Shown: positions 1 through 58,921 of the stretch, in pieces
Numbering within the stretch: position 1 is the stretch's first letter
How the letters are laid out: each line of letters opens with the position of its first letter
Origin: Hormiphora californensis
Taxonomy: Eukaryota > Animalia > Ctenophora
Direction of reading: 5' to 3'
Assembly: GCA_020137815.1 (NCBI GenBank)
Contig: CM035357.1
Coordinates: 1,550,001 to 1,614,000 of the forward strand
Length of the DNA: 64,000 nucleotides
Position numbers and translations under genes: made by a program
The notes under the pieces: model-generated
What the model saw: the letters and a program-made list of their open reading frames with translations, nothing else
What the model was told of the DNA's origin: nothing
The model's database searches: none

Positions 1-19
1 TGAATTTAACAGTAAACTC

Positions 20-1495
20 GTGGCTAAATGTTTCCTAAACTTGTCAAATGAGCAGTCTGAAGTGGAAACTGAAGAAGATTGGATAGACGAACTCTTTTTA
101 CATTGTGATGATTCATTGAAAGGACTCTCAACTGGGGTGAAAAGAGTATCAAGATGGGCGAACGAGAATGAGTTTGATATGGATGATATTGATGTCGTTA
201 CACTAAGAGGAACACTCCAATCCATTGCTACATATCCCTTTGATGATTATCGTGACCACTTCTCAATACTGATAACAACAAGAATTATTGCATTATGTAT
301 TCATAATGCGGTGTTTCCCTGCCTCAAATGGATTTAAAATTGATGAATAAGCTTCAAAACTGGATTTCCTGATGAATTTTGTGCTCAAAGAGCATTTTTT
401 GGCTGATGCGATGTTGGTTACTAAGGTAACTAGGTTAGTTGCTATGGTAACCAAAGCAGTTGCTATGGTAACCGAAGCAGATCCTATGGTAACCATTAAC
501 CAAGACAGTTGTTATGGCAACCAAGGCAGTTGCTTAGGAGACCCCAGTTGGCTATCAAGTGCTTCAAATTTAACCGCATCTCAACTCGAGTCACTAGTGT
601 GACAGTAGTTTCATGCTTGAATACGTTCTACAACTTCATGACATGGCTGTAGGGCGCCCAAAGTGATTTCAGGTGATAGTGGGAAGTGCTATCAGCGAGT
701 AATTGCGCGCCACAAAGTGTGTTAATCATTTCCTTTGTTGAATCAACAAAGCGTGAGATGAAAGTTTTATGAAGGAGCAGACTTGTTGTTAGGCGTTGTC
801 CGTGACGGACGGACGGACATTTAGTTAACCCCCACGATCTGCTGATTTCTAAACCCTGAATGATCTTTTTAGCACGTGCGTGCTAAAAACATCATCCGGG
901 TGAATGCCCTTCGGGCATTCACCCGGGCAGGGAAAAAATAAGGAGCACTATTTTTATGGAGGATCAAAATCTCGAGGAACAAGGTCACAAACGACAAGAT
1001 CGCCATGTCGGGTTTTACACACAAAAAAATGGAAAAATTCTCTTAGATGGAGGTGAGAAGGATGAGTGGGATATTATTACAACATGCCAAATTGCCGGAT
1101 ATCGGTGTCTGGTAGCTGCCGAAGCAGCAGGCTGTGACGAGAATGGAGAGTTGGTGGAGGTAAAAGCACATCGCGTTATTAGCAGACTGGAGCAAAGACA
1201 CAGTTTTAGGAAAGGAAAGCTATTAAAGACCTACATTCTCTGCTATTTGGTCGGGGTTGAGCACATTTTGATTGGATTCCTTAACACAAAAGGGGACGTT
1301 GTGGAACGAAAAAGATACACGCTCCCTGAAATTGAAAATGAATGTATGAAATACTGGAACCGGGATTATCACATGGATTTCCTTGGCCAGGTCCTGGGCT
1401 GGGCACTACCTCAAGTATCGGAGGGTAAAGTTTACCAAATGGCGTACTATGGTGGAAACCAGATATCATTTAAAGAAGTAGACAATGCCAAATAA
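20..1495 (+). pseudogene. DXO/Rai1-family copy 1, interrupted by a 657-bp transposon (278-934), catalytic motifs altered; 5' end may lie upstream of the window
   Basis: ORF 20..337 has DVVTLRGTLQSIA (motif I Arg). ORF 956..1495 has ELVEVK, KLLKTYILCYLVG and IGF. Removing 278-934 restores LIT-KIRSTIFMED, collinear with paralog LVKISNTIVMDE. Motif II reads GFYTQ and motif III reads EAA. Confidence 0.8.
278..934 (-). mobile_element. Non-autonomous Helentron/HINE (DINE-1-like) element inserted in DXO copy 1
   Basis: Subterminal IR TTTCCCTGCC (314-323) / GGCAGGGAAA (926-935); terminal hairpins at 290-309 and 896-926; (GACG)n tract near 804-818; internal tandem repeat 415-540; no TSD. A related copy lies at 19303-19667. 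Confidence 0.7.
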
Positions 1496-1692
1496 CACTT
1501 GGTTTTGGATATAAAATTTTTACATGTTTTTCTTAGCCGATTTTTGTAATGCAAATTTACGTTTTTTTTATAAGTGTTTTAACTAGTTTTATAATTTAAA
1601 CTTTGTTTTGTGAATTTAAATCACCTATTGGTAGCCCAAACGCAAACGTATACCCTCACCATCTTTCTTACGCCAGATATTGTCACCTGATT

Positions 1693-3035
1693 ATGAAGAC
1701 GTCCTTTAAGGTTCCACGAAACCACAGCTCTGCTTCCAAACCTGTCAAATTCAACAGTATCGAACTCGGTCGGTTCTCCCTCACGCCTACACGCGAGTAT
1801 TGCCCTGATGTTTCTGTTCCGAAGATAAAAAAGGTGGTCAAACTTCCTGCGGATCTAAACGAGGGATACAAAGAATATGAGGACAAACTGTTAGGTGGAG
1901 TTGACTGCATTTTCGAGTGGATTAGCAGGAATAAATTTGACACGGAATCCGTCGATTTGATCACATTCAGGGGTATCCTGAAGAAGATTGCAACAAGTGC
2001 TTATGATCACTACAGGAGTCACTTTTGTTTCCGGCTGGTTAAAATCTCCAACACCATCGTAATGGATGAAATAGAGACCGATCAAAAACGGGAAAGAGAG
2101 GCGAACATGAATTCCATTCAGCTGCGTAATGTATACCACGGAAGAAGACTTGAAGAAGTCACTATGGATGTGGGGGTGAATGAGACAGATATTGTGACGA
2201 CTTGTAAAGTAGCGGGGTATCGGTGTGTTGTCGCTGCCGAGGTTGATGGATGTAACGATGAGGGAGAGTTGGTGGAGGTAAAAGCTAACTTTGTGATAGA
2301 ACACCCGAAACAGATGAACACCTTTCGGAATGGTAAACTATTCAACACCTTAATGCAGTGCTATCTAGGTTGGTATCCAGAACGTCCTTATTGGCTTTCG
2401 TGATAAGGGCGGTATCTTGAGAAGCCTACAGAACTATACACTTCCTCAAATTGAAGAAGAGTGTAGGCAATATTGGGACAAGGATTTCTACATGTCTTTT
2501 CTAAATTCAGTCCTCTCCTGGGCTCTTCCACAAATTGCAGAAGGAAAGGTTTATCATTTGGAGTATCTGGGTGGCGATGAAATAACACTGATAGAAGTTC
2601 CAGACCCAAATCATATCCCACAGTACTTCAAAGATCATGCAAAGCAGTATTCACCTGGCAGTGGCGCTCCTGGTCCAGATATTGGAAGTTCAGAAATTGG
2701 GCAGAACATCAAATACACAGTGGCACTCTACCAATGATCATGATGCGAACGCGAAAGGAGCTAAAGGGGAGCAGTTCCATGCTAGAAGGGAGGGTCAAGA
2801 GAACAATCAACGAACATCCTCTTATGAAATGGGTCGTGAACGAAGGGCACAGGGTTGGGGAAACTCTCGGGGAAACTATCGAGGACAAAGCACTTTTCGA
2901 GGTAGAACTGAATCTGGTAGGGGACAGCTAAATGATACTCAGGACAGGGGATCTTCAAGAAGGCATCGATCGCGATCGGGGGAATGGGTTCCAGAAAGCC
3001 GGGCTGACCGTGACTCTGACTGGCGCAGAAGGTGA
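1693..3035 (+). CDS. DXO/Rai1-family nuclease copy 2 (type A, RG-rich tail); two apparent +1 frameshifts (about 2368 and 2695)
   Basis: Motifs DLITFRGILKKI, GRRLE, AAEVDG, ELVEVK, KLFNTLMQCYL(VG) and GFRD match the DXO/Dom3Z active-site motifs. Versus paralogs there is an extra G at ctaGgtt and an extra A at gaAattg. Confidence 0.8.
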
Positions 3036-3295
3036 ACAATTTCTTCAGGCGAAGAATCATGCGTTTTCTTGTGCTGTTGCACCTCCAAAAATAATAGTAT
3101 GAACAATACAAGCGTTTTCTTGCAATTCATGATATAATGTGTCTAATTTTTATTGTGAAAATTGGAAGCACACAATTGGTGTTGATACGTTGACATTTCA
3201 TTGACCGATCTATTTATATCCTATAGTGAAAGTTTCGTTTTTTGTTTCCCTTTTCTTCTAACTTATCAGCAAATTCTCCCTATTCTTCAAGGTGA

Positions 3296-4597
3296 ATGTC
3301 AGATTATTCTACGTTTTATATAGATCGTGGCAGCAGGGACCCGTACCAACATGTTTCTCTCACCGCCGAGCGTGTCGGACATTTCGCTGTTACTCCAGAT
3401 TTAAAGTATTCTGACAAGGTGGTGTACAGTAAATTGCGAGAAAATATCCGACTCCCTGTTGACCTCAATGCAAACTTTGAAGAAAATCGTGAGAAGTTGA
3501 AGAAATATGCCCTAGATTGCCCAGATATGATCCAGAATATAATGAAATGGGTATGCCGAAATGGTTTTGATACAGGAGAAATCGATTTGGTAACGAATAG
3601 AGGACGGCTACGGCGGTTAGGTGAATATCCCTTCAATACTCGGAATAAAAATCGGCTACGGGAGCATTTCTGTTTTCGGCTTACAAAAGTTGCTAACTTC
3701 ATATCCATGGACGAGGTTGAAACTGAATTCAGGCTGAACAAAATTAAAAATGAGTCAGACTATACCAAACAGTTCATGTGTACTGGTCTTGAACTTGAGA
3801 ACGTTCTTCTGGAGGAAGGCAGTGAAAACAAGGTCCATATACTGACATTGACAACGATTGGACGTATTCGCTGTCTGGTTGCTGCTGAGGTCGATGGATG
3901 TGATGGAAATGGGGAGTTGGTTGAAATAAAGTCCAATCTACTTTTACCTGATGATGACTACCAGAAGTGGAAGTTTTATAATTTCAAGCTTTTTGCAGCG
4001 TATTTTCAGTGCTACCTAGTTGGTATTCAACATCTTCTGGTGGGGTTTCAAAGCTATGACAATTTTTTAGAAGATTTGAAGCGGTATACTCTACCTCAGA
4101 TTGAAGAAGAGTGTAAAGCTTATTGGAACAAGGATTTCTACATGTCATTTCTAAATTCAGTCCTCTCCTGGGCTCTTCCACAAATTGAAGATGGAAAGGT
4201 GTATCATTTGGAGTATCTGGGTGGCAATGAAATAACACTGATAGAAGTTCCAGACCCAGATCACATCCCACAGTACTTCAAAGATCATGCGGAGCAGTAT
4301 TCATTTGGCAGTAGTGTCTTTGTCCCCGATATTGAAATCTCCGAATTAGGCAGAACATCAAATACACCATGGACGTCAAGAAGATATCACGATGCAAAGG
4401 GAGCTGAGGGGGAGAATTGTCGTGGAAGAAATAACAGGAATCGTGGACGTGGACGTGGACGTGGACGTGGACGTGGAGGTAATTCAAATTACAGGGGCCG
4501 TGGAAATTCCAGTGGCAATAACCGTGGAAACTCCAGTGGCAACAACCGGGGAAACTCCAGTGGCAACAACCGGGGAAATTCCAGTGGTCGCAACTAG
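3296..4597 (+). CDS. DXO/Rai1-family nuclease copy 3 (type B) with (RG)n and GNSSGNNR tail
   Basis: 433-aa intronless ORF with NRGRL, GLELE, AAEVDG, ELVEIK, KLF..YFQCYLVG. Its stop TAG aligns with CAG in copy 4. Confidence 0.88.
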   Translation: MSDYSTFYIDRGSRDPYQHVSLTAERVGHFAVTPDLKYSDKVVYSKLRENIRLPVDLNANFEENREKLKKYALDCPDMIQNIMKWVCRNGFDTGEIDLVTNRGRLRRLGEYPFNTRNKNRLREHFCFRLTKVANFISMDEVETEFRLNKIKNESDYTKQFMCTGLELENVLLEEGSENKVHILTLTTIGRIRCLVAAEVDGCDGNGELVEIKSNLLLPDDDYQKWKFYNFKLFAAYFQCYLVGIQHLLVGFQSYDNFLEDLKRYTLPQIEEECKAYWNKDFYMSFLNSVLSWALPQIEDGKVYHLEYLGGNEITLIEVPDPDHIPQYFKDHAEQYSFGSSVFVPDIEISELGRTSNTPWTSRRYHDAKGAEGENCRGRNNRNRGRGRGRGRGRGGNSNYRGRGNSSGNNRGNSSGNNRGNSSGNNRGNSSGRN

Positions 4598-4865
4598 AAA
4601 AGCTTCAGTGGTAATTGACCGTGGGAACTATCAAAGACACAATTCATACCAGGAGCAAGGTAGAGCAGACAGTGGTGAAGGACGAAATGAATATATGGAA
4701 TGGAAGGCCAGCAACTTTTTGTGAAATCGATGAGAAAATCAGTTTTGCTGTCCTGACATCAATGACTATTAACCAACATTTGCCTGTCGAGTGTTGCTAT
4801 TTTAAAGTGAGAGTGGACCGACACCGAATTTGACAAGGTTGTTGTAGGTAGTAGAGATTATTTCT

Positions 4866-5111
4866 CTGAGCATTTTGCTTTTTCCCGCTTAAAATTGACC
4901 CCTCCATCACTGAGATACTTTTGTTATGTTGGGAGCATGACGTCACGCATCTACCTCTGTATTCTCTCTGTAGGCAGTACATCGAACATGCCCGGGCGTG
5001 CACACATACAGAATACAAGAGATAGATGTGTGACGTCATGCTCCCAACATAACAAAAGTATCTCAGTGATGGAGGGGTCAATTTTAAGCGGGAAATAAGC
5101 AAAATGCTCAG
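4866..5111. mobile_element. MITE with ~100-bp TIRs, present only in the left arm of the foldback element
   Basis: CTGAGCATTTTGC...GCAAAATGCTCAG; absent from the mirror position near 9580. Confidence 0.85.
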
Positions 5112-5359
5112 TAGTCAGGACCACTATTGGTGCGCGGTCGTGCCCACGGAAGGAGTGCTTGGATCATCTTGAAACCGGTTTTAAGTTCACTAATGCATGC
5201 CCAAAAGTGTCTGTAGCCATTTGGGTGATGTTCTGACAATCCAATCACGAGTTATGACCGAAAAACAGTCAAAAAAGACGTTTTAAAGTGACAAAAAGGA
5301 GGATCTGAAGGGCTGGGGCTTTGAAACTTCTTGTGTGGACAGAGAATCGTCCAAATTTG

Positions 5360-5449
5360 TTGGTGATGACATCCCCTATTTGTTGGTGATGACATCCCCT
5401 ATTATGTTTGCTTCGCGCGGCCCTAGTGGAGGGGTGACCGCGTCACCAA
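5360..5449 (+). mobile_element. Micro-transposon (TTGGTGA..TCACCAA, 9-bp TSD CCAAATTTG); mirror copy at 9225-9314
   Basis: Direct repeats at 5351-5359 and 5450-5458; relatives at 12555 and 55654. Confidence 0.8.
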
Positions 5450-5454
5450 CCAAA

Positions 5455-5753
5455 TTTGCAGTGTCAACTTTCAGATACTTTCTATCTTTTGTAGTTATCT
5501 AATTAGAGTCGTTTAAACATGTGAGAAGTTGCTAAAGGGCGCTATAATACTGCTTGTGAAGTGATCACTTGACGAGATTTGCCCAATTAGAGAGCGGATT
5601 AAAGCATACAAGCGGTGAGAGCAAGCAATATGAGACGGAAGCAGTACCTAATCACCCTGTTTTGTAGGGTCATATAGGTTGTCTCACATGTTTAAACGAC
5701 TCTAATTAGATAACTACAAAAGATCGAAACTATCTGAAAGTTGACACTGCAAA
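5455..5753. mobile_element. Nested MITE with ~70-bp TIRs; mirror copy at about 8921-9219
   Basis: TTTGCAGTGTCAACTTTCAGATA...TATCTGAAAGTTGACACTGCAAA. Confidence 0.75.
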
Positions 5754-8700
5754 ATGGGGGGGGGGGGCGGCTGAAGTTTTTGAAGTTTTTGAAGTCAACT
5801 TCAAAAACTTCAAAGAGAAACTTAGGGTGGAAAACTTTAAAAACTTCAAAAACTCATATCTCATAAACCGTTGGAGATAGGCCCTATGTTGCTTCATAAC
5901 TCTTATATAAACTCGAGGCCGCTGATGATTTTGGTGTCCATATTTTTTTCACTACTCCATTAATAAAAAATTTGCATTTTGTGAAACTGGCAAAAAGGGT
6001 GTGGCCCCAAAAAAATTTTTGAAAATTTACTTCATAATTTTTAAATACTTTCTTAGCATTTTCTAGGCAACTTTTTGAGTTATAGAATGAAAATGGTATC
6101 TGTTTTTACAAAAAATTTAAATTTTTTAAACCAAATTTTGCCATGGATTTCATGGCTAGGAATCATTGTAAATATCCTAATTTGTGGTAGAAAAAGGGCA
6201 GACAAGGACGGATTAAGTTGCCACAATATGTATTAAGCATGAAATTAACCTAAACAAGTGGAATAATAGTCACTGATCACTGCGCTGGCAAGCGCAAAGG
6301 TGGCCCCATCCCATCCCCCAAAAACTTTTCCCGAAAAAGTGGGCCCGCTTGCCAACAGCGTAGATATAACAATTTTGAAGTTTTAGCTCATTTTGGCACT
6401 TTTCGACCCCTCCTAACTCCGGAACCAGATGAGCTAGGAGGCTGAAATTTGGTACTTAGAAGCTTCCCATAGACCTCTACTGATGGTAAAAATTTGAAGT
6501 AGCTAGCTCACTCCGGTCGCAAGTTATGACACCACCCCCAAAACAGAAAATTCAGTGTGGCGATAGGTATATATATATATATATAGATATAGACGCTTCA
6601 CTGTGTAACACTTGCAGCCCGAACCATAATAGCTAGAGACTTTAATCAAGTTTTATTCGTTAGCAAATCGTTCGGGGCATGTATTAGTTAAGGTTTCAAG
6701 TGAAAATGTCCACTATGACGGGCGTAATGACGTCACAAAGTGACGTCATTGAAAAATATCAGACCATATATTTTCAAACGCCTCTAGCACCCTCAAGAAG
6801 TATTCTGATTCCTGATTTGACGAAAAATCGTAGGTGGCAAATTGTCTGAACTTTCAGATACTATATCGTAAATTTTTCTAACTTGTCATTTTCAGACCTT
6901 AAAACGCGTCGGAACTCAAAAATTTGATGTTAAAATCCACATAAAAATTCACATTTAGTGCAATAACTTCAGTTCTTGACTACCATGCCCTTTAAAACTT
7001 TCCACACTTTTAGTGCTTCATAGGCCTAATAGTCTGTAATAATTTTCGACGTCATTTGTGACGTCATTTGTGACGTCACGACGTCAAAACGACGTCTAAT
7101 TTTGAAAATTTCGTCAAATCAGTTTCCTTCAACCCAGGATATATTTGAATTACATTTGAACACATTAGTTGACAATTTGCTTAGTTGTTTGAGGTCATAA
7201 ATGACCTCAAACGACCAAAAAAGAGTTCAAATTTAGAGCAAAAACTAATTGAAATTAGTTCGCCAGAAAGGTGGCCCATTTTGAACTTACTCCTTCATTT
7301 CCGTCACCTTTGAGTTGAGGCTTCATGGACAGGTATCCGTAAACTTTTCCGCCTTCAACTCAAAGGTGACGGAAATGAAGGAGTAAGTTCAAAATGGGCC
7401 ACCTTTCTGGCGAACTAATTTCAATTAGTTTTTGCTCTAAATTTGAACTCTTTTTTGGTCGTTTGAGGTCATTTATGACCTCAAACAACTAAGCAAATTG
7501 TCAACTAATGTGTTCAAATGTAATTCAAATATATCCTGGGTTGAAGGAAACTGATTTGACGAAATTTTCAAAATTAGACGTCGTTTTGACGTCGTGACGT
7601 CACAAATGACGTCACAAATGACGTCGAAAATTATTACAGACTATTAGGCCTATGAAGCACTAAAAGTGTGGAAAGTTTTAAAGGGCATGGTAGTCAAGAA
7701 CTGAAGTTATTGCACTAAATGTGAATTTTTATGTGGATTTTAACATCAAATTTTTGAGTTCCGACGCGTTTTAAGGTCTGAAAATGACAAGTTAGAAAAA
7801 TTTACGATATAGTATCTGAAAGTTCAGACAATTTGCCACCTACGATTTTTCGTCAAATCAGGAATCAGAATACTTCTTGAGGGTGCTAGAGGCGTTTGAA
7901 AATATATGGTCTGATATTTTTCAATGACGTCACTTTGTGACGTCATTACGCCCGTCATAGTGGACATTTTCACTTGAAACCTTAACTAATACATGCCCCG
8001 AACGATTTGCTAACGAATAAAACTTGATTAAAGTCTCTAGCTATTATGGTTCGGGCTGCAAGTGTTACACAGTGAAGCGTCTATATCTATATATATATAT
8101 ATATACCTATCGCCACACTGAATTTTCTGTTTTGGGGGTGGTGTCATAACTTGCGACCGGAGTGAGCTAGCTACTTCAAATTTTTACCATCAGTAGAGGT
8201 CTATGGGAAGCTTCTAAGTACCAAATTTCAGCCTCCTAGCTCATCTGGTTCCGGAGTTAGGAGGGGTCGAAAAGTGCCAAAATGAGCTAAAACTTCAAAA
8301 TTGTTATATCTACGCTGTTGGCAAGCGGGCCCACTTTTTCGGGAAAAGTTTTTGGGGGATGGGATGGGGCCACCTTTGCGCTTGCCAGCGCAGTGATCAG
8401 TGACTATTATTCCACTTGTTTAGGTTAATTTCATGCTTAATACATATTGTGGCAACTTAATCCGTCCTTGTCTGCCCTTTTTCTACCACAAATTAGGATA
8501 TTTACAATGATTCCTAGCCATGAAATCCATGGCAAAATTTGGTTTAAAAAATTTAAATTTTTTGTAAAAACAGATACCATTTTCATTCTATAACTCAAAA
8601 AGTTGCCTAGAAAATGCTAAGAAAGTATTTAAAAATTATGAAGTAAATTTTCAAAAATTTTTTTGGGGCCACACCCTTTTTGCCAGTTTCACAAAATGCA

Positions 8701-9867
8701 AATTTTTTATTAATGGAGTAGTGAAAAAAATATGGACACCAAAATCATCAGCGGCCTCGAGTTTATATAAGAGTTATGAAGCAACATAGGGCCTATCTCC
8801 AACGGTTTATGAGATATGAGTTTTTGAAGTTTTTGAAGTTTTCCACCCTAAGTTTCTCTTTGAAGTTTTTGAAGTTGACTTCAAAAACTTCAAAAACTTC
8901 AGCCGCCCCCCCCCCCCCATTTTGCAGTGTCAACTTTCAGATAGTTTCGATCTTTTGTAGTTATCTAATTAGAGTCGTTTAAACATGTGAGACAACCTAT
9001 ATGACCCTACAAAACAGGGTGATTAGGTACTGCTTCCGTCTCATATTGCTTGCTCTCACCGCTTGTATGCTTTAATCCGCTCTCTAATTGGGCAAATCTC
9101 GTCAAGTGATCACTTCACAAGCAGTATTATAGCGCCCTTTAGCAACTTCTCACATGTTTAAACGACTCTAATTAGATAACTACAAAAGATAGAAAGTATC
9201 TGAAAGTTGACACTGCAAATTTGGTTGGTGACGCGGTCACCCCTCCACTAGGGCCGCGCGAAGCAAACATAATAGGGGATGTCATCACCAACAAATAGGG
9301 GATGTCATCACCAACAAATTTGGACGATTCTCTGTCCACACAAGAAGTTTCAAAGCCCCAGCCCTTCATATAAGGGCTGTGTTCAGATCCTCCTTTTTGT
9401 CACTTTAAAACGTCTTTTTTGACTGTTTTTCGGTCATAACTCGTGATTGGATTATCAGAACATCACCCAAATGGCTACAGACACTTTTGGGCATGCATTA
9501 GTGAACTTAAAACCGGTTTCAAGATGATCCAAGCACTCCTTCCGTGGGCACGACCGCGCACCAATAGTGGTCCTGACTACAGAGAAATAATCTCTACTAC
9601 CTACAACAACCTTGTAAAATTCTGTGTCGGTCCACTATCACTTAAATATTTTTAAATGCTGAGCTATTTTTATACTGCTATTTTCTGTTTATTTTACCGT
9701 TAAAGTCGGATTTTTTGAAGTTGTCATCCCCCCTTTTCGTGTGTGGAATGTTTTTTGCGTGTCACATCACATGTGGTGTGTGTGTCAAAATTGATAAATT
9801 TCACATGCACGGTCATTTTGGGGTGACAACTTCAAAAAGTTCGATTTTAGTAGTTACTGATAAACTA

Positions 9868-10010
9868 CAGTCAAACTTCGATTGGATCGAATCGTCGAAA
9901 GAAGGGTTATTTTAAATAATCAAGGTTTCTTTTTTAGAGCTGAATTATCATCTATCATTGAAATCTTAATTCGAGGAAAACTTTTCTGTCTGGTAATTCG
10001 AGTTTGACTG
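9868..10010. mobile_element. pogo/Tc1-like MITE (TA-CAGTCAAAC..GTTTGACTG-TA), co-duplicated at about 12697-12832 and 15260-15390
   Basis: Short TIRs with TA flanks inside the duplicated spacer. Confidence 0.65.
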
Positions 10011-10539
10011 TAGTCTGTATACGACAATGTATGATGTATGTATAGATAGGGAGATCAAAACATGACGTAAATTAATTAAGTTAAGTTTTTTTAGCCCTCA
10101 GGCCGATGTATTTTGAATGTATTGTATTGTATTGTGTATATTACGAGATAAAATCTAAGATAAGAAACCTTGATTGTTCAAGTGTAGTATTATTGTAAAT
10201 CATGCTGTTTTTTAATCATCTTTACTCTTTTTTATCTTGTTTTAACTATTATGAATTTGTAAATCTTTTTTTCTGAAATCTTAATGTTTGTTTAATTCTT
10301 CCGGACCTCCTGTCCCTACAATACGATCTGTGTGTTTGGTGGCCTGTTTACAGGTGCGAGCGGCCTAACCTCTACCCAAACCCCAACCCTAACCCTAACC
10401 CTACTTAAATAGCCTTGCCAAGTTAGACTGTTTTACAAATGTAAAGGGAGGGTTAGAACATAACAACTTTAGCCCTAACCCTAAAAAACCGTTTGTCAGC
10501 ACTCGCCAAACACCCAGATTTTAACGCTGGCCCTACAAT

Positions 10540-10790
10540 ACCAATTTACCCCAAAATCCAACTCTACCACTTCGCCACCCTATATCACTTTTCTCTTTTA
10601 GCTTAGTTATGATGTGAGATACATTAAGGAGCTGATGAGCAGAACACGCTCCTAAATTACAATGTGCTATGATGATCTCCATTTAGAGATTTAGGGGTTA
10701 TCTCTACCTCCAGGATGGGGTAACAATACCAAAAACAATATCCTAGTCTTCCTGGCTACGAAACCGTACAACTTCTCGTAAAATCGGTAC
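10540..10790 (+). pseudogene. Decayed duplicate of the Rab14 5' flank/5'UTR/first codons (also 13415-13655 and 17095-17335)
   Basis: CTGGCTACGAAACCGTACAACTTCTCGTAA vs Rab14 ATGGCTGCGAATCCGTACAACTACTCGTAT. The upstream CCCAAAATCC...TTTTAGCTT..TATGAT.TGAGATA is shared with 22213-22285. Confidence 0.75.
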
Positions 10791-10957
10791 TGTTATACAT
10801 AATGCAATTAATCTTGTTATTGTGAAAATTGGTAGCACACAATTGGTGTTGATACGTTGACATTTCATTGACCGATCTATTTATATCCTATAGTGAAAGT
10901 TTTTTGTTTCCCTTTTCTTCTAACTTATCAGCAAATTCTCCCTATTCTTCAAGGTGA

Positions 10958-12448
10958 ATGTCAGATTATTCTACGTTTTATATAGATCGTGGCAGCAGCG
11001 ACCCGTACCAACATGTTTCTCTCACCACCGAGCGTGTCGGAGATTTCGCTGTTACTCCAGATTTAAAGTATTCTGACAAGGTGGTGTACAGTAAATTGCG
11101 AGAAAATATCCGACTCCCTGTTGACCTCAATGCAAACTTTGAAGAAAATCGTGAGAAGTTGAATAAATATGCCCTAGATTGCCCAGATATGATCCAGAAT
11201 ATAATGAAATGGGTATGCCGAAAACCTTTTGATACTGGAGAAATCGATTTGGTAACGAATAGAGGACGGCTACGGCGGTTAGGTGAATATCCCTTCAATA
11301 CTCGGAATAAAAATCGGCTACGGGAGCATTTCTGTTTTCGGCTTACAAAAGTTGCTAACTTCATATCCATGGACGAGGTTGAAACTGAATTCAGGCTGAA
11401 CAAAATTAAAAATGAGTCTGACTATACCAAACAGTTCATGTGTACTGGTCTTGAACTTGAGAACGTTCTTCTGGAGGAAGGCAGTGAAAATAAGGTCCAT
11501 GTACTGACATTGACAACGATTGGACGTATTCGCTGTCTGGTTGCTGCTGAGGTCGATGGATGTGATGAAAATGGGGACTTGGTTGAAATAAAGTCCAATC
11601 TACTTTTACCTGATGATAACTACCAGAAGCAGAAATTTTATAATTTCAAGCTTTTTGCAGCGTATTTTCAGTGCTACCTAGTTGGTATTCAACATCTTCT
11701 GGTGGGGTTTCGTAGCTATGACAGTTTTTTAAAAGATGTGAAACGGTATACCCTGCCTCAGATTGAAGAAGAGTGTAGGCAATATTGGAACAAGGACTTC
11801 TACACCTCTTTTCTAAATGCAGTACTCTCCTGGGCTCTTCCTCAAATCGCAGATGGAAAGGTGTATCATTTGGAGTATCTGGGTGGCAATGAAATAACAC
11901 TGATAGAAGTTCCAGACCCAGATCACATCCCACAGTACTTCAAAGATCATGCGGAGCAGTATTCATTCGGCAGTAGTGTCTTTGTCCCCGATATTGAAAT
12001 CTCCGAGTTAGGCAGAACATCAAATACACCATGGAGGTCAAGAAGATATCACGATGCAAAGGGAGCTGAGGGGAAGAATTATCGTGGAAGAAATAACAGG
12101 AATCGTGGACGATGGGTGCAGTTTGGAGGTAATTTAAATTACAGGGGCCGGGGAAACGTCAGTGGCAACTATCCGGAAAATTCCAGTGGTAACTATCGGG
12201 GAAACTTCAGTGGTGACTATCGGGGAAATTCCAGTGGCAACTATCGGGGAAATTCCAGTGGCAACTATCGGGGAAATTCCAGTGGTTATAGTTACTATCG
12301 GGCAAATTCCAGTGGTGACTATCGGGGAAATTCCAGTAGTGACTGTCAGGCAAATTCCAGTGGTGACTATTGGGGAAACGTCAGTGGTTATAACCAGGAA
12401 AGCGTCAGTGGTGGAGGACGAAATGAATATGGAAGGGAAGGATGGTAA
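10958..12448 (+). CDS. DXO/Rai1-family nuclease copy 4 (type B) with YRGNSSG(N/D) repeat tail
   Basis: 496-aa intronless ORF, near-identical to copy 3; all catalytic motifs intact; about 10 copies of a 24-nt repeat at 12140-12390. Confidence 0.9.
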   Translation: MSDYSTFYIDRGSSDPYQHVSLTTERVGDFAVTPDLKYSDKVVYSKLRENIRLPVDLNANFEENREKLNKYALDCPDMIQNIMKWVCRKPFDTGEIDLVTNRGRLRRLGEYPFNTRNKNRLREHFCFRLTKVANFISMDEVETEFRLNKIKNESDYTKQFMCTGLELENVLLEEGSENKVHVLTLTTIGRIRCLVAAEVDGCDENGDLVEIKSNLLLPDDNYQKQKFYNFKLFAAYFQCYLVGIQHLLVGFRSYDSFLKDVKRYTLPQIEEECRQYWNKDFYTSFLNAVLSWALPQIADGKVYHLEYLGGNEITLIEVPDPDHIPQYFKDHAEQYSFGSSVFVPDIEISELGRTSNTPWRSRRYHDAKGAEGKNYRGRNNRNRGRWVQFGGNLNYRGRGNVSGNYPENSSGNYRGNFSGDYRGNSSGNYRGNSSGNYRGNSSGYSYYRANSSGDYRGNSSSDCQANSSGDYWGNVSGYNQESVSGGGRNEYGREGW

Positions 12449-12554
12449 TCAGTAGAAAGGAGGCCAGTAACTTTTTGTGAAATCGATGAGAAAATCAGTT
12501 TTGCTGCCCTGACATAAATGACTGACATTTGCTATTTTAATATTTTCAAATGCT

Positions 12555-12612
12555 TTGGTGACACGGCCACCCCTACACTAGCCGCACGAAGAATACGGGA
12601 TTTCATCATCAA
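12555..12612 (-). mobile_element. 58-bp micro-transposon with 9-bp TSD TCAAATGCT
   Basis: TSD at 12546-54 and 12613-21; empty site in the paralogous spacer near 9652-9660. Confidence 0.75.
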
Positions 12613-13968
12613 TCAAATGCTGAGCTATTTTTATACTGCTATTTTTATACAAGGAATTTTCTGTTTATTTTACCGTTAGTTGTTACTGATAAACTACAGT
12701 CAAACCTCGATTTACTGGAATCGTCAAAAGAAGGGTTATTTTAAATCGAGGTGTCTATTATTTAGAGCTGAATTATCATTGAAATCTTAATTCGAGGAAA
12801 ACTTTTCTGTCTCTTTACTTCGAGTTTGACTGTAGTCTGTATACGACAATGAGTTTTATGTATGATGTATGTATAGATAGGGAGATCAAAACATGACGTA
12901 AATTAATTAAGTTAAGTTTTTTAGCCCTCAGGCCGATGTATTTTTGAATGTATTGTATTGTATTGTGTATATTACGAGATAAAATCTAAGATAAGAAACC
13001 TTGATTGTTCAAGTGTAGTATTATTGTAAATCATGCTGTTTTTTAATCATCTTTACTCTTTTTTATCTTGTTTTAACTATTATGAGCTTGTTAGTCTTTT
13101 TTTCTGAAATCTTAATGTTTGTTTAATTCCTCCTGTCCCTACGATACGGGCACCGTTACGATCTGGGTGTTTGGTGGATTGTTTAGTTTTACAGGTGCAC
13201 ACTGCCAAAAAAGTTGATTCACTAAAATGGCTCTAACCGCCAAACCACTCAACCGTTTTGGCTAATTCCAAGTTTATCTCCAGTAGGAAATGTCAAGGCC
13301 TAACGTTAACCCAAATCCAAACCCTTCTTTAGTCCTAACCCTAAAAAATTAAACTGTTTGTCAGCACTCACCAGTCACCAAACACCCAGATTTTAAGGCT
13401 GGCCCTACAATACCAATTTACCCCAAAATCCAACTCTACCACTTCGCCACCCTATATCACTTTTCTCTTTTAGCTTAGTTATGATGTGAGATACACTAAG
13501 GAGCTGATAAGGAGAACACGTTCCTAAATTGCAATGTGTTATGATGATCTCCATTTAGAGATTTAGGGGTTATCTCTACCTCCAGGATGGGTTAACAATA
13601 CCAAAAACAATATATCCTGGCTACGAAACCGTACAACTCCTCGTAAAATCGGTACTGTTATTCCTGTTAATCACCGTAGGCCAACTTATAATGCTGCATC
13701 ATGCAGCCTGCATGTACCCGTTTTAATTATCTAGCACTCCCGCTCTTGCAGTTGTTTTCAGAAAGGCCAACTATTACACAATGGCTATACGGTATAGCCT
13801 ATACCTTGTTACAAAAGCCATCCTGGACCCTCGTTTATGCTGTCAGTGTGTAAGTCTGGTTTCAAGTTTTGCTGTATAACATCTACCTGGTAAGTGAACT
13901 TATTACATAGCACACTCACCATTCTCTCTTCGCAAACTAGTTATTGGTACCTACTACCTGGTTGGGTT

Positions 13969-14970
13969 ATGAAAGCGTCCTTTAAAGTTCCACGTCATCG
14001 CAGTTCTGCTTCAAAACCTATCAAGTTCAACAGTATCGAACTCGGTCGGTTCTCCCTTACGCCTATAACACGCGAGTATTGCCCTGATGTTTCTGTTCCG
14101 AAAATGAAAAAGGTGGTCAAACTCCCTGCGGATCTAAACGAAGGATTCGAGGAATTTGAGGATAGGTTGATGGGTGGAAACGACTGCGTTTTTAAGTGGA
14201 TTTGCGGGAACGATTTTGACATGGAGTCTATTGATTTGATCGCATCCAGGGGAATCCTGAAAAAAATCGCAACGAATCCCTACGACCATTTCAGGAATCA
14301 CTTTGGTATCCGGCTGGTTAAAATTGCTGACACCATTGCGATGGACACATTGGAAACTGCAGAAGAGGAGGAAATGACAACTTCTCAGCTCCGGAATAAG
14401 TATCACGGCCACAGACTCGAGAAGGTCACTATGGACGTTGGGGAAAATGAGACAAATATTGTGACAACCTGCAACATTGCCGGGTATCGGTGTCTTGTTA
14501 GGGCCGAAGTTGATGGATGTAACGATGAGGGAGAGTTGGTGGAGGTAAAAGCAAACTTTGTGATACAATATCCAAAACAGTTGGAAAACTTTCGTCGGAG
14601 TAAACTGTTCACCACGTTCATGCAGTGCTATTTGGTTGGTATTCCAAACGTCCTTATCGGGTTTCGTGATAAGAGTGGCATTTTGAGAAGGGTACAGAAC
14701 TATACCCTACCTCAAATTGAAGAAGAGTGTAGGCAATATTGGAACAAGGATTTCTACATGTCATTTCTAAATTCAGTCCTCTCATGGGCTCTTCCTCAAA
14801 TTGAAGATGGAAAGGTTTATCATTTGGAGTACAAGGGTGGCGATGAAATAACACTGATAGAAGTTCCAGACCCAGATCACATCCCACAATTCTTCAAAGA
14901 TTACGTGCAGCAGAATTCATCCGGCAGTGGCGTTCCGGATATCAGCAAACTCACTTTGGGTGTAAATTAG
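13969..14970 (+). CDS. DXO/Rai1-family nuclease copy 5 (type A, no RG tail)
   Basis: ATG at 13969 (MKASFKVPR); motifs SRGILKKI, GHRLE, RAEVDG, ELVEVK, QCYLVG, GFRD. Confidence 0.9.
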   Translation: MKASFKVPRHRSSASKPIKFNSIELGRFSLTPITREYCPDVSVPKMKKVVKLPADLNEGFEEFEDRLMGGNDCVFKWICGNDFDMESIDLIASRGILKKIATNPYDHFRNHFGIRLVKIADTIAMDTLETAEEEEMTTSQLRNKYHGHRLEKVTMDVGENETNIVTTCNIAGYRCLVRAEVDGCNDEGELVEVKANFVIQYPKQLENFRRSKLFTTFMQCYLVGIPNVLIGFRDKSGILRRVQNYTLPQIEEECRQYWNKDFYMSFLNSVLSWALPQIEDGKVYHLEYKGGDEITLIEVPDPDHIPQFFKDYVQQNSSGSGVPDISKLTLGVN

Positions 14971-15429
14971 CGGGATTTAAATTACATGCTGGAAGAGGGA
15001 GCCACTGTGGTGAGCGAAGTGGCAATGGAACAAAACGGATCCATGGGTTTGGGCTAAATCTGGCGGAGGATCTCATGGTTGGTGTATATGAAAGGGGGTC
15101 CCGGAAAACTTCCAGCTGGTATCGATCTATTAGGTATGAGCCGTGACTGGCGAAGCAGGTTATGTCAAATTGTCAGGGAATCAATGAAAAAGGACATTTT
15201 TCTCACAACCTAAGAAGGAATTTCTGTTTATTTTACCGTTAGTCGTTACTGATAAACTACAGTCAAACCTCGATTTACTGGAATCGTCAAAAGAAGGGTT
15301 ATTTTAAATCGAGGTGTCTATTATTTAGAGCTGAGTTATCATTGAAATCTTAATTCGAGGAAAACTTTTCTGTCTCTTTAATTCGAGTTTGTCTGTATAC
15401 GACAATGAGTTTTATGTATGATGTATGTA

Positions 15430-16576
15430 TATTGTATGGTCTTGTTTTTTTTTAACTGGTCGTCCGACCAAAATTTTTCAATTAAAGATTCCGATACATT
15501 AACATAACAGCCGGGGGTTGATTTTCATATACTCAGATGGTGCGGTGTTCAAATTTCCTTTTAGCGAAAAAACCAGATCTCTATCTTACTCCTGAGCGGT
15601 GCTATTAATGAAAACACGACGTGCGGTGCTCTTGTGCGGTGCTGACCTCTAATTTACCTCTTGGTGCCTCTTATAAGTTGAAATTTCAGGAATCGATGAC
15701 TATAATTTTTTCCCAATCAACAAAACTGACATCAATAAACATTTTACTCTTTTAGTGCGGTGCAGGCCTAAATTTCTGCTTTTTTCTTACTCTTGAAGGG
15801 TAAAATGAGCAAATAGCATTACGGTTTCTTGCACACCTTTTCTATCGACATTTCTTGATACTATGAACCTAAAATCAACACTAAAGTTTACTCATGGGGT
15901 GCGGTGCAGAGGCTTCAAAAGTGGTTGCATATTGCGACTTGTCAACTGCACCGCAATTAATGAGTAAATACGTCTGAAAACTAGCTAGTGGTGTAGCTAG
16001 TGTCTATATCAACTGTTTCTGATCAAAATTGGAATCATTATTACTCATTTGGTGCGGTGCATGGGCATTTTAATAGAACTTGATATTTTCCGTGTCACCG
16101 CACCAAATGAGTAAATTTTTTGATTTTTTTTCAGCACTAATTGTTCCTTTACAAATGAGGAACGTATTAGTCAACATTTGGGAATAATAAAGTCCATTTG
16201 ATACTATAAAACCTCGATTTAAAAATGCTGCTACTTTGAGTGCCAATTGCACCGCACTAGATGAGTCACATGCTTACTCATCGCTGTAGGCAAGATTGAT
16301 AGACCAATTATCTGCAATTTTACTCAAAAATTGCAGTTTTATTATTTGTCCTGAAGATTTTGTACCAGTTTTAGCAAACGTGGTCATATGCACCGCACAA
16401 CATGAGTAAAGTTTTAAAAACACAAGCTTAAATTACTCTCAAGACACTTTTACATCATAATTTTGATTTTTAGCAATTTTGAAAAAATATTTCTTACCTA
16501 AATACTCCTTTTTCCAAAATTTGTCGAATTTTCAGTCGAGGAGACGACCAGTTAAAAAAAACAAGACCGTATACTG
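15430..16576. mobile_element. Non-autonomous TIR element (TA target) with internal ACTCA..GTGCGGTGC repeats
   Basis: GGTCTTGTTTTTTTTTAACTGGTCGTC...GACGACCAGTTAAAAAAAACAAGACC; absent from the paralogous spacers near 10040 and 12870. Confidence 0.8.
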
Positions 16577-17617
16577 TATAGCTAGTGAGATCAAAACATG
16601 ACGTAAATTAATTAAGTTAAGTTTTTTAGCCCTCAGGCCGATGTATTTTTGAATTTTTTTGAATTTGTATTGTATTGTGTATACTACGAGATAAAATCTA
16701 AAATTAGAAACCTTAATTGTTCAAGTGTAGTATTATTGTAAATCATGCTGTTTTTTAATCATCTTCACTCTTTTTTATCTTGTTTTAAATATTATGAGCT
16801 TGTTAATTTTTTTCTGAAATCTCAATGTTTGTTTAATTCCTCCTGTCCCTACAATACGTGTGCCGTTACGATATGGGTGTTTGGTGGCCTGTTTACAGGT
16901 GCGCGCTGCCAAAAACGTTGATTCACTAAAATGGCTCTAACCGCCAAACCACTCAACCGTTTTGGCTAATTCAAAGTTTATCTGGTAGGAAATGCCAACC
17001 CAAACCCCAACCCTAACCCTACTTTAGCCCTAACCCTAAAAAACCGTTTGTCAGCACTCGCCAAACACCCAGATTTTAGCGCTGGCCCTACAATACCAAC
17101 TTACCCCAAAATCCAACTCTACCATTTCGCCACCCTATATCACTTTTCTTTTAGCTTAGTTATGTTGTGAGATACACTAAGGAGCTGATAAGGAGAACAC
17201 GTTCCTAAATTGCAATGTGTTATGGTAATCTCCATTTAGAGATTTAGGGGTTATCTCTACCTCAAGGATGGGGTAACAATACCAAAAACAATATCCTGGC
17301 TACGAAACCGTACAACTTCTCGTAAAATCGGTACTGTTATTCCAGTTAATCGTAGGCCAACTTATAATGCTGCATGTACCTGTTTTAATTATTTAGCACT
17401 CCCGCTCTTGCAGTTGTTTTCAGAAAGGCCAACTATTACACAATGGCTATACCTTGTTACAAAAGCCATCCTGGACCCTCGTTATGCTTTCAGTTTAAGT
17501 CTGGTTTCAAGTTTTGCTGTCTAACAAGTTTCCTGGTAAGTGAATTTATTACAGACTACAGAGCACACTCATCATTCTCTCTTCGCAAACTAGTTATTGG
17601 TACTACCTGGCTGGGTT

Positions 17618-18616
17618 ATGAAGGCGTCCTTTAAAGTTCCACGTCATCGCAGCTCTGCTTCAAAACCTGTCAAATTCAACAGTATCGAACTCGGTCGGTT
17701 CTCCCTCACGCATACATGCGAGTATTGCCCTGATGGTTCTGTTCCGAAGATGAAAAAGGTGGTCAAACTTCCTGCGGATCTAAACGAGGGATGCGAGGAT
17801 TTTGAGGAAAGGGTGATGGGTGGATACGACTGCGTTTTTAAGTGGATTTGTGGGAACGAATTTGACTTGGATTCTGTTGATTTGATCGTATCCAGGGGAA
17901 TCCTGAAAAAAATCGCAACGAATCCCTACGACCATTTCAGGAATCACTTTGGTATCCGGCTGGTAAAAATTGCTGACACCATCGCGATGGACACATTGGA
18001 TACTGCAAAAGAGGAGGAAATGACAACTTCTCGGCGACGGAATATTTATCACGGCCACAGACTCGAGAAGGTCACTACGGACGTTGGGGAAAATGAGACA
18101 TATATTGTGACAACCTGCAACATTGCCGGGTATCGGTGTCTTGTTAGGGCCGAAGTTGATGGATGTAACGATGAGGGAGAGTTGGTGGAGGTAAAAGCAA
18201 ACTTTGTGATACAATATCCAAAACAGTTGGAAAACTTTCGTCGGGGTAAACTGTTCACCACGTTTATGCAGTGTTATTTGGTTGGTATTCCAAACGTCCT
18301 TATCGGGTTTCGTGATAAGAGCGGTATCTTAAGAAGCCTACAGAACTATACACTTCCTCAAATTGAAGAAGAGTGTAGGCAATATTGGAACAAGGATTTC
18401 TACATGTCATTTCTAAATTCAGTCCTCTCATGGGCTCTTCCACAAATTGAAGATGGAAAGGTTTATCATTTGGAGTACAAGGGTGGCGATGAAATAACAC
18501 TGATAGAAGTTCCAGACCCAGATCACATCCCACAATTCTTCAAAGATTATGTGCAGCAGAATTCATCCGGCAGTGGCGTTCCGGATATTAGCAAACTTAC
18601 TTTAAGTGGAAATTAG
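17618..18616 (+). CDS. DXO/Rai1-family nuclease copy 6 (type A, no RG tail)
   Basis: Near-identical to copy 5; motifs intact. Confidence 0.9.
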   Translation: MKASFKVPRHRSSASKPVKFNSIELGRFSLTHTCEYCPDGSVPKMKKVVKLPADLNEGCEDFEERVMGGYDCVFKWICGNEFDLDSVDLIVSRGILKKIATNPYDHFRNHFGIRLVKIADTIAMDTLDTAKEEEMTTSRRRNIYHGHRLEKVTTDVGENETYIVTTCNIAGYRCLVRAEVDGCNDEGELVEVKANFVIQYPKQLENFRRGKLFTTFMQCYLVGIPNVLIGFRDKSGILRSLQNYTLPQIEEECRQYWNKDFYMSFLNSVLSWALPQIEDGKVYHLEYKGGDEITLIEVPDPDHIPQFFKDYVQQNSSGSGVPDISKLTLSGN

Positions 18617-19302
18617 CGGGATTTAAATTACATGCTGGAAGAGGGAGCAACTGTGGTGAGCGAAGTGGCAAAGGAACAAAACGGTTCCATGGGTTTGGGC
18701 TGAATCTGGCGGAGGATCTCATGGTTGGTGTATGAAAGGGGATCCCGGAAAACTTCCAGCTGGTATCGATCTGTTAGGTATGAGCCGTGACTAGCGAAGC
18801 AGGTTATTGTCAAATTGTCAGGGAATCTATGAAAAAGGACATTTTTTTCTCATAACCTAAGAAAGAAATTTTGTGAGCCATGACAGCATTTTCAGTTGGT
18901 GAACCTTACTAATAGCTGTTGACCGGATTTTCGATTTTGTTTCTTTCAATAACTAATTGAATTAAACAGTTTACCAGAAATAAACTTCAAATATCGGTCA
19001 TACGCTTTGTGAGGGATGCAAACTGTAACTGCCACTGTGTACTTTTTTCTACCGTGATCAATGAATGTATGAACAACGGGGAAGTAATTTTGATATCTCC
19101 TTCTGGTGATCAACACACACACACGCCCTCTGTACAACAGTTTAATGGGGAATCTCACACATACACGGGCAGAACTCGGTTAAGGTCCCTGGTTCAATTC
19201 CCGGTCAAACCCAGTATTTTTCGATTTTCTTCCCTATTTAATTCTTGCTCTGAACTCATTATTCAGAATACTAATGTATGAACAACGTTAAGTTTTAATT
19301 TT

Positions 19303-19667
19303 TTTCCCCGCCCGGGTGAAGGCCGAAGGCCTTCACCCGGATGCCTTTTGCAAAAAGGCATAGGGGTTTAGAAATCTAAACGGATATAGTGACTATGTGT
19401 AGCAAGTCAGCTCTCTTGTCCCATTTCAGGTTGCGAGGGGCAACATGTAGCAACTAGAGCCGTGCACACAACAACAACCTGCTCCTTCATAAACCACGCA
19501 ATTCCGCAATGTGGTGCGCAATTTAGTGCTACTAAAACACAAGTATTTGTTCTATACTGGTTCCTTGATTTATAAATGATCCGAATTGTCTGTCCCGCCT
19601 TCGTGTTAGAAATGAAAGGTTGGCGGGGAAACATAGCATTATGAAACATAATGCATTTATTTTTGTT
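19303..19667 (+). mobile_element. Helentron/HINE-like element related to 278-934
   Basis: SubTIR TTTCCCCGCC / GGCGGGGAAA; 5' hairpin CCGGGTGAAGGCC-GAA-GGCCTTCACCCGG; 3' hairpin GCATTATG-AAA-CATAATGC; T-rich ends. Confidence 0.7.
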
Positions 19668-19966
19668 ATCTTTTTTGTACAGTATAAAGAATGTAATTGT
19701 TGAATGTTTTGTGATGTGATGTGATGTATAAAATATGTAACAAGATAAAAGTTGAGACGATTCGAGTGCTGTTTTTCAAACTTCTCAGCTCTTTTCTACT
19801 TTGTAATGAAGAACATTTATATCTTTATATCGCTTTTTTGTCTGTTTATTCTATCCTCCCCTCGTAAATATACATCCCTGATCCCGCAAATCAAAATGTA
19901 CCTATTCCCTTTATCACAATCCTTTCCTAGCTTGGATAAGGTTTACGTTTAGGACCTGCAGAACCC

Positions 19967-21380
19967 ATGTCCGTGTCTACGTTTCACATAGATCGTGGTA
20001 GCAGGGACCCTTATCAACGTGCCTCTCTCACAACTCAGCACGTTGAACTTGGGGAGTTCGCTGTTACCCCAAATATAGAATATTCTCCTGAGGTGGTGTA
20101 CAGAATACTACGAGAAGACATTCAACTTCCTGCTGATCTCAACGCTAACTTGAAGCAAAATCTTGAAAAAATGAAGAGAAATGCATTACTTCTTCCTGAT
20201 ATGATACAGTTTATAATGAAGTGGATTTGTGACAACAATTATGACACCAGTAATATCGACTTAGTGACTAACAGATCGAGGCTAAGACGGCTAGCTCAAT
20301 ATCCTTTTAACAAGCGACATGAAATGGATACCCGAGAGCACTTCACATTCCGGCTCAAAAAAGTTGGTAATTTCATTGTTATGGACGAGATAGAGACGCA
20401 GCATAGAGTAGATAGAGTAAATAGTGAGTCTGATGACATGAGGCGGATTATGTGTCAAGGTTTTGAACTTGAGAACGTTTTTCTTGAGGAGGGTAGTGAA
20501 AATAACGTCCATACACTAAAGTTGACAACGATTGGTCGCATTCGCTGTTTTGTGTCTTTTCAAGTCGATGGACGTGATAGAAATGGGGAGTTGGTTGAAG
20601 TAAAAGCGAACAGAATCATCAGGAAGGACATGCATGAGGACGTATTTCATGCTTATAAACTATTTGAAGCCTATTTACAGTGCTGCCTCGTTGGTGTACC
20701 ACACCTATTTATCGGTTTTCGTAATAAAGATGTTGGTCTTTTGTTAGATTTAAAACAGTACACCCTGCCTCAAATTGAAGAAGAGTGTAAAGCTTATTGG
20801 AACAAGGATTTCTACATGTCATTTCTAAATGCAGTACTCTCCTGGGCTCTTCCTCAAATCGCAGAATGGAAAGGTGTATCATTTGGAGTACAGGGGTGGC
20901 GATGAAATAACTCTGATAGAAGTTCCAGACCCAGATCACATCCCACAATACTTCAAAGATCATGCGGAGCAGTATTCATTTGGCAGTAGTGTCTTTGTTC
21001 CTGATATTGACAGTTCAGAGCTGGGCAGAATATCTAATACATCATCAAATGCTCTATGGAACCAACAACAACGTGGACATGATTTGGACATTTATCATGA
21101 TGCGAAAGGAGCTAAAGGGGAGCAGTTCCATGCTAGAAGGGAGGGTAAAGAAAACTATCAACGAACATCCTCTTATGAAATGGGTCGTGAACGAAGGGCA
21201 CAGGGTTGGAGAAACTCTCGGGGAAACTATAAAGGACATAGCACTTCTCGTGATTGGACTGAATCCGGTAGGGGACAGCTAAATCATACTCAAGACAGGG
21301 CATCTTCAAGTAGGCATCGATCGGGGGAATGGGTTCCAGAGAGCCGGGCCGACCGTGACTCTGACTGGCGCAGAAGGTAA
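19967..21380 (+). CDS. DXO/Rai1-family copy 7 (divergent type B, motif III E->Q, RG tail); one apparent +1 frameshift near 20866
   Basis: Motifs NRSRL, GFELE, SFQVDG, ELVEVK, QCCLVG, GFRN. GCAGAATGG vs GCAGATGG in paralogs; continues in ORF 20829..21380. Confidence 0.8.

Positions 21381-22326: not shown

Positions 22327-26420
<4,094 letters not shown>

Positions 26421-41064: not shown

Positions 41065-58921
<17,857 letters not shown>

Follow-up and report, generated by a model that had tools for sequence, protein, structure and literature searches.

Why should a ctenophore carry, side by side, seven genes of the DXO/Rai1 family, a family described as single copy in most eukaryotes and in which the roles of extra copies are described as poorly characterised (PMC11571810)? 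The question is raised by 64,000 nucleotides of Hormiphora californensis (contig CM035357.1 of assembly GCA_020137815.1, positions 1,550,001 to 1,614,000 of the forward strand), and this whole stretch will be referred to as “the window”. Seven RAI1/DXO loci, ordered X-A1-B1-B2-A2-A3-B', occupy its positions 2-21380 on the + strand, as judged from the list of open reading frames (ORFs), a Pfam scan and mutual similarity, and they agree with the seven same-strand paralogues (X-A-B-B-A-A-B') of a preliminary description made from the sequence. We consider the array to be a tandem DXO/Rai1 set from an old, likely ctenophore-specific radiation, an evolutionary statement to which we assign a probability of roughly 0.85; functionally, it most likely encodes a mixture of cutting and non-cutting 5'-end proteins, with diversity kept by recombination.

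The assignment to DXO/Rai1, already proposed in that description, is borne out by profile matches at all seven loci and by the predicted fold of copy A2. Matches to the Pfam family RAI1 (PF08652) have E-values of 1e-22 to 5e-45 (the 5' piece of X alone, 2e-4), and every locus includes a piece above the 26.8-bit gathering score (81-155 bits; the 5' piece of X alone, 21). When a profile of the array was run against the six frames of the 64-kb window, 10 pieces were found, all on the + strand and all inside 1-21377. The AlphaFold model of A2 (mean predicted local distance difference test, pLDDT, 89.8) resembles the structures of Arabidopsis DXO1 and mouse DXO (E-values from 4e-26 to 1e-23), with TM-scores (TMq) of 0.81-0.85 to solved DXO/Rai1 structures at ~20% identity. 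In a collection of 5.8 billion proteins (7 matches out of 882 candidates), the closest relatives of A2 are six gene models of the ctenophore Pleurobrachia bachei, at 46-93% identity, together with one other protein; furthermore, P. bachei has a counterpart, 86-94% identical, for each of X, A2, B2 and B'.

This relationship extends to a wider clade. In a profile search, 986 out of 1.84 billion representatives matched at E<=0.001 (150 of them listed), and in a FastTree phylogeny of 169 rows 36 formed a separate group. With IQ-TREE under LG+G4, 33 group rows were separated from 35 sampled others (68 rows, support 100/100), and under a mixture model (posterior mean site frequency, PMSF) 18 from 18 (36 rows, 100/99); the 68-row tree left out 19 near-duplicate or partial rows, the group was defined after seeing the FastTree result, and the trees are unrooted. 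These trees place the array within a well-supported, divergent DXO clade. The members named to species are six P. bachei and two Bolinopsis microptera proteins, all from ctenophores, the others looked up being ENA, Logan and JGI records; many are on metagenome contigs, of up to 479 kb for one cluster, and one is labelled hypothetical. The Sycon DXO is placed outside. We infer that the records without a species label are ctenophore DNA.

The motifs of the family have been given as R (I), GxxxE (II), ExD (III), ExK (IV), K..Q (V) and GxR (VI) (PMC4513879), and the corresponding columns were checked here by alignment against mouse DXO. The earlier claim that all copies carry them stands for four: all 9 key residues are kept in A1 (1693..3035), B2 (10958..12448), A2 (13969..14970) and A3 (17618..18616), B1 (3296..4597) and B' (19967..21380) keeping 8/9 and X (2..1495, its 5' end beyond the window) 5/9; all seven are on the + strand. 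The substituted catalytic residues also noticed earlier are seen in these last three. X, recognised by Pfam and motif alignment, has lost motif II Glu, III Asp, V Gln and VI Arg, and with them two of the four metal ligands; its motif II is placed differently by two alignments, with Glu in neither. The same losses occur in its P. bachei orthologue P0004, which carries the same substitutions at 91-94% identity. The P0004 model still folds as a DXO (TMq 0.84-0.88 across 219 aa), and its one low-confidence part is residues 48-61, in the motif II region. In B', Gln replaces the motif III Glu, a change also present in P0002, P0005 and P0006 of P. bachei; in B1, Gln replaces the motif VI Arg, unlike B2 and P0007. 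Among control DXOs from outside the clade (n=13), 11 keep 9/9 residues and two 8/9. AgRai1 loses its activity when doubly mutated in motif III. X, a predicted pseudo-nuclease, and possibly B', may be catalytically dead 5'-end proteins.

Motif loss is also found elsewhere in the clade. The motif III Glu is kept in 0/23 rows of a Bolinopsis-like subfamily and the Asp in 2/23 (P0195 and P0196 left out). These Bolinopsis-like DXOs (L001:607-1629; P0039, P0175-P0194), annotated merely as uncharacterised, lack motif III and occur several per contig; the members apparently sharing contigs form sets of 2, 2, 3 and 2 proteins, which suggests DXO clusters in other genomes. The ENA record P0157 is a protein of 755 aa in which one RAI1 domain follows another and the motifs of the second are altered, possibly a fused active/dead pair.

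Four of the seven copies are unbroken ORFs: B1 (433 aa), B2 (496 aa), A2 (333 aa, 93% identical to P0001) and A3 (332 aa). The tails differ among copies, and the arginine/glycine (RG) tails reported previously are found in two of them only: B1, with RG/RGN repeats, has 12 RG in its last 120 aa, and B2, with RGN repeats, 9 in 150, the tails of A1 and B' (a tail type common to both) containing 5 and 3, while A2, A3 and X are tailless. B' has a +1 shift near 20866 in the assembly sequence, and A1 two, near 2368 and 2694. Contigs of four sequencing runs covering 1-4400 were used to check the interruptions in that part. The base near 2368 is absent in run X5 (312/312 of depth, the sole X5 contig there) and in 130/276 of run X2, and the base near 2694 in 606/874 of X2 and 0/312 of X5; the A1 frameshifts are probably assembly or allele indels, the second less clearly so. 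X is interrupted by a polymorphic insertion, a high-copy repeat of 657 bp (277..933, no strand assigned), whose bins reach a depth of 6e4-5e5 vs ~115-600 in the flanking parts of X. This gap is an insertion and not an intron, because in run X5 one DNA contig passes directly from 276 to 934 (depth 250, short side 93 letters), an empty site; P0004 is continuous across the same point.

The sign of recombination is situated just past motif VI, in a 3' segment of 210 bp (70 codons) delimited by self-comparison and synonymous divergence (dS; A2 14701..14910, + strand), with + strand counterparts at B1 4085-4294, B2 11747-11956, A3 18347-18556, A1 from 2435 and B' from 20759, and none in X. Nonsynonymous (dN) and synonymous divergence are throughout pairwise averages, obtained by the Nei-Gojobori method on the codon alignment with breaks read as the letter X. 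In these 70 codons the A, B and B' copies are 87-100% identical with dS 0.10-0.43, and 56-58% identical to X; between A and either B or B', the 5' cores share 33-37% identity and dS runs from 1.7 to saturation. In 8/8 cross-subfamily pairs of A, B and B', codons that encode the same amino acid are identical more often in the 3' than in the 5' part (Fisher p 1e-4 to 3e-11), and the two parts differ in 0/4 pairs with X; for B1/B2, divergence is greater in the 3' segment (p 0.004). A1 combines an A core with the tail common to B', with a tail dS of 0.20 vs saturated cores. Gene conversion or unequal crossing-over in the 3' segment would be the simplest reading of these comparisons, selection on synonymous sites being less likely because X is excluded from the homogenisation.

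The four subfamilies are old, since synonymous sites are saturated between them, and they are under purifying selection, with recent duplication on top. The 5'-core dS is 1.2-1.4 for B vs B', 0.56-0.73 for A1 vs A2/A3, 0.11 for A2/A3 and 0.03 for B1/B2. Over the whole core, dN/dS is 0.21-0.48 in the 15 pairs without X (pairs with X are saturated), and the confidence intervals are below 1 for all subfamily pairs having an estimate. The array had been presented as young and rapidly diversifying; this holds within subfamilies, as the low dS of A2/A3 (0.11) and B1/B2 (0.07 for the pair) indicates, and fails between them, where divergence is at or near saturation and each subfamily has its P. bachei orthologue. 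Of 113 differences between contigs and assembly, 40 were listed, 30 of them coding (17 synonymous and 13 nonsynonymous, with ~22% of sites synonymous and alleles and paralogues mixed).

The copies had been called intronless, and for the coding regions this is correct; 5' splicing is possible, as acceptor-like sites lie upstream of the starts. A pyrimidine tract followed by YAG is found 16-36 nt upstream of the start in 6/6 copies with a start codon, a level reached by 13% of random 80-bp background windows, and the copies are interdependent. Upstream of A2 and A3 (13850-13940; 17536-17593) there is a GTAAGT, a pyrimidine tract and a TAG, possibly marking an intron of 51-58 nt in the 5' untranslated region. 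One contig of the oligo-dT metatranscriptome X7 is unspliced across the acceptor-like site of B1, where a cis-intron is unsupported. In Hormiphora, at least 56% of Iso-Seq reads are reported to bear a spliced leader (PMC8527503). With leaders this common, X-A1 and A1-B1 gaps this short (197 and 260 bp) and acceptor-like sites in place, an operon or trans-splicing is plausible. Of the 7 contigs from X7, 3 fall on the X repeat; the other 4 match A1 and B1 at a depth of 3-4 with 1-7 differences, a weak hint of expression. The sequence shares of 0.07 in X7 and 0.05-0.06 in the runs of organism B are not counted here as showing habitat or expression.

As for the origin of the intronless state, ancient retroposition or intron loss may be the cause, because a distant member of the clade likewise lacks introns (one unbroken reading frame on a contig of 1654 bp). 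Retroposition scars were looked for as runs of at least 8 A within 600 bp downstream of all seven copies; they are absent, which is uninformative at the age of the array. The horizontal origin suggested by the preliminary description obtained no support, from either a viral or a prokaryotic donor: none of six scans of viral contigs (P0009, P0011, P0017, P0032 and two family alignments) and neither of two scans of prokaryote genomes gave a relative, these short patterns reaching close relatives only, and a viral fold search in BFVD returned 4 matches at E<=0.001, all with TMq<=0.29. Scans of metagenome contigs gave nothing for one clade alignment and one locus for the other, and an ESM Atlas search with P0009 returned ordinary RAI1 clusters only.

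How might such a set work? From what is known of the family, A1, A2, A3, B2 and probably B1 would act through two bound metal ions, taking off non-standard caps or trimming 5' ends, and X, possibly also B', would grip the 5' ends of RNA and leave them uncut. With unequal crossing-over or gene conversion just past motif VI, the substrate pocket could diverge while the tails (none, RGN repeats or B'-type) are swapped. The least supported step is the target, which would be mis-capped or foreign RNA, in line with the proposal for C. elegans EOL-1. Surveillance of abnormally capped or foreign RNA is, by analogy, our best single guess at the function, at a probability of about 0.45. The RAI1 matches, the DXO fold, the homogenised segment, the motif losses common with P. 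bachei orthologues and the support for the clade all speak for the reading as a whole.

Several observations weigh against it. Yeast DXO duplicates are reported to have taken a housekeeping role in ribosomal RNA (rRNA; PMC11571810). Positive selection was not seen in pairwise dN/dS, and the evolution by host-parasite conflict put forward in the preliminary description is not supported, because no pair is significantly above 1; the highest value, 0.94 for the B1/B2 5' core, has a confidence interval of 0.34-3.23 and comes from few differences, although pairwise averages may conceal selection at few sites. Three of the seven copies (X, A1 and B') are interrupted in the assembly. RNA support consists of the four X7 contigs on genes, at depth 3-4 in one metatranscriptome without a silent control, and the RNA-like run X13 gave one contig on the X repeat and zero on the genes. 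Finally, a tree of the 3' segment with A1, A2 and A3 forced together is not rejected (approximately unbiased test, p-AU 0.55), and the tree alone is without a reshuffling signal.

Among the other explanations, a housekeeping split, in which the copies divide among them ordinary 5'-end tasks such as rRNA trimming, removal of nicotinamide and flavin adenine dinucleotide (NAD/FAD) caps or the clearing of spliced-leader trans-splicing by-products, survives best, and we regard it as possible but rather doubtful. Purifying selection and old subfamilies agree with it, as do the abundance of spliced leaders in Hormiphora (PMC8527503) and the report that yeast Dxo1 duplicates gained rRNA processing twice (PMC11571810); the recent duplicates, mosaic genes and repeated motif loss, however, amount to a turnover beyond the need of a fixed split, and one gene is described as enough in most eukaryotes (PMC11571810).

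A Cutoff-like arrangement, in which dead paralogues (X and the Bolinopsis-like proteins) shield the 5' ends of precursors of PIWI-interacting and small interfering RNAs (piRNAs, siRNAs) and active copies process them, we consider unlikely. X has lost 4/9 key residues and keeps both its fold and 91-94% identity to its orthologue, no Bolinopsis-like row retains the motif III Glu, Drosophila Cutoff (Cuff), itself stripped of catalytic residues, functions at piRNA clusters (PMC7061269), and Mnemiopsis is reported to be rich in endo-siRNAs and piRNAs (PMC6211395). Nevertheless, Cuff is reported to keep its RNA-backbone side chains and to be positively selected, whereas X is without the motif VI Arg and the pairwise dN/dS gives no sign of such selection; nor was a piRNA-pathway gene seen beside the array (ORF list, Pfam and window scans). 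A more ambitious and quite speculative proposal would make the array part of a phylum-wide system of recombining active and decoy 5'-end sensors, telling spliced-leader-capped self RNA from viral or transposon RNA, with X-A1-B1 as an operon; if true, it would be an RNA immune arm parallel to the nematode eol-1 clusters, because trans-splicing marks host mRNA.

Neutral birth-and-death, with one needed gene and decaying duplicates in a repeat-rich region, is improbable: the X insertion, the A1 and B' frameshifts, the motif VI loss in B1 alone and a large foldback element within the array would fit it, but four subfamilies have stayed open over saturated synonymous divergence with orthologues in a second species, the dN/dS intervals lie below 1, and the run X5 contigs lack both the X insertion and one of the A1 shifts. 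Weakest of all, and very improbable, is a horizontal origin from a virus or microbe or a haplotype-duplicating assembly artefact, to which the intronless coding, the many metagenome contigs in the clade and the unpolished-looking stretch at ~24700-26060 could lend themselves, against the eight viral and prokaryotic scans without a close relative, the best viral fold at TMq 0.29, young pairs that differ by 6-9% with different flanks, and the presence of 0.44-0.66 of the words of 10800-15000 in the DNA runs of two samples.

Besides the genes, the array contains several repeats. Between B1 and B2 lies a foldback (long inverted-repeat) element of 4.8 kb detected by self-BLAST (4799..9649, no strand assigned), with arms of ~2.2 kb and a nested palindromic insert of 245 bp (4866-5111); 5107-9584 matches its own reverse complement at 98.6%, and 4799-4868 pairs with 9580-9649. 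The slight differences between the arms make a true transposon more probable than a folded-back read. A spacer of ~1 kb precedes B2 (9847..10796, + strand), with further copies before A2 (12676-13661) and A3 (16575-17340), 83% identical, and A3 itself is inside a duplicated unit of 2.3 kb (12870-15227 vs 16575-18874, 91%).

Downstream, 970 bp past B', a GTPase gene with introns occupies 22351-24700 (+), and we take it to be Rab14-like. It provides the sole direct check on the earlier statement that the neighbouring genes have introns, which is correct here (Ras-domain pieces 1-43 and 87-147 are ~2 kb apart, with GT donors). Inside this gene, 24700-26060 is a homopolymer-rich, low-quality-looking stretch, which suggests unpolished long-read sequence. 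The rest of the window holds exon fragments of a mitochondrial carrier (28702-29169, -), a long interspersed nuclear element (LINE) retrotransposon (34193-38622, +) whose ORF1 has a PHD finger and whose endonuclease/reverse-transcriptase ORF2 is broken by an internal stop, and exon fragments of a protein kinase (50126-58365, +), presumably SRPK-like.

With respect to known systems, the analogy drawn beforehand to eol-1 and Cutoff holds. Tandem DXO clusters and dead DXOs are both documented. In C. elegans, tandem clusters comprise ten or eleven DXO genes (PMC13129544, PMC11571810); eol-1 is induced by Orsay virus, and EOL-1 has been proposed to remove RNA without cap methylation (PMC13129544). 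The likeness lies in tandem DXO paralogues in an animal with spliced-leader trans-splicing; the lineage, however, is independent, and the array described here has intronless coding, metal-ligand losses in several subfamilies and a homogenised 3' segment. Cutoff, a dead DXO in Drosophila piRNA biogenesis (PMC7061269), is similarly a homologue with lost catalytic residues kept by selection, as are X, B' and the Bolinopsis-like subfamily; it differs in being a single, positively selected gene acting in the Rhino-Deadlock-Cutoff complex, whereas X lacks the motif VI Arg and a link to piRNA clusters. Mouse DXO/Dom3Z, Schizosaccharomyces pombe Rai1 and Arabidopsis DXO1 share the fold (TMq up to 0.85) and motifs I-VI with A1, A2, A3 and B2, but at ~20% identity, and they are usually single copy; the second position of motif II, hydrophobic in them, is Arg or His in the A copies, and they are without the R/G/S/N-rich tails of B and B'. 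Budding-yeast Rai1/Dxo1 also represent a duplication followed by divergence of the substrate pocket, although as two dispersed copies with an rRNA role rather than a recombining array.

A ctenophore DXO/RAI1 expansion found no mention in the main texts of the open literature searched, and gene-family tables of genome papers may list one. Tandem DXO arrays and dead DXOs being already known, what is added here is an apparently ctenophore-wide clade, repeated motif loss and the shuffling of cores and tails. A second DXO radiation in an animal, from an early-branching phylum, allows a test of whether such expansions track RNA defence or trans-splicing, and the naturally occurring range of pockets, from active through partly changed to dead, all on a common C-terminal scaffold, lends itself to the mapping of cap specificity.

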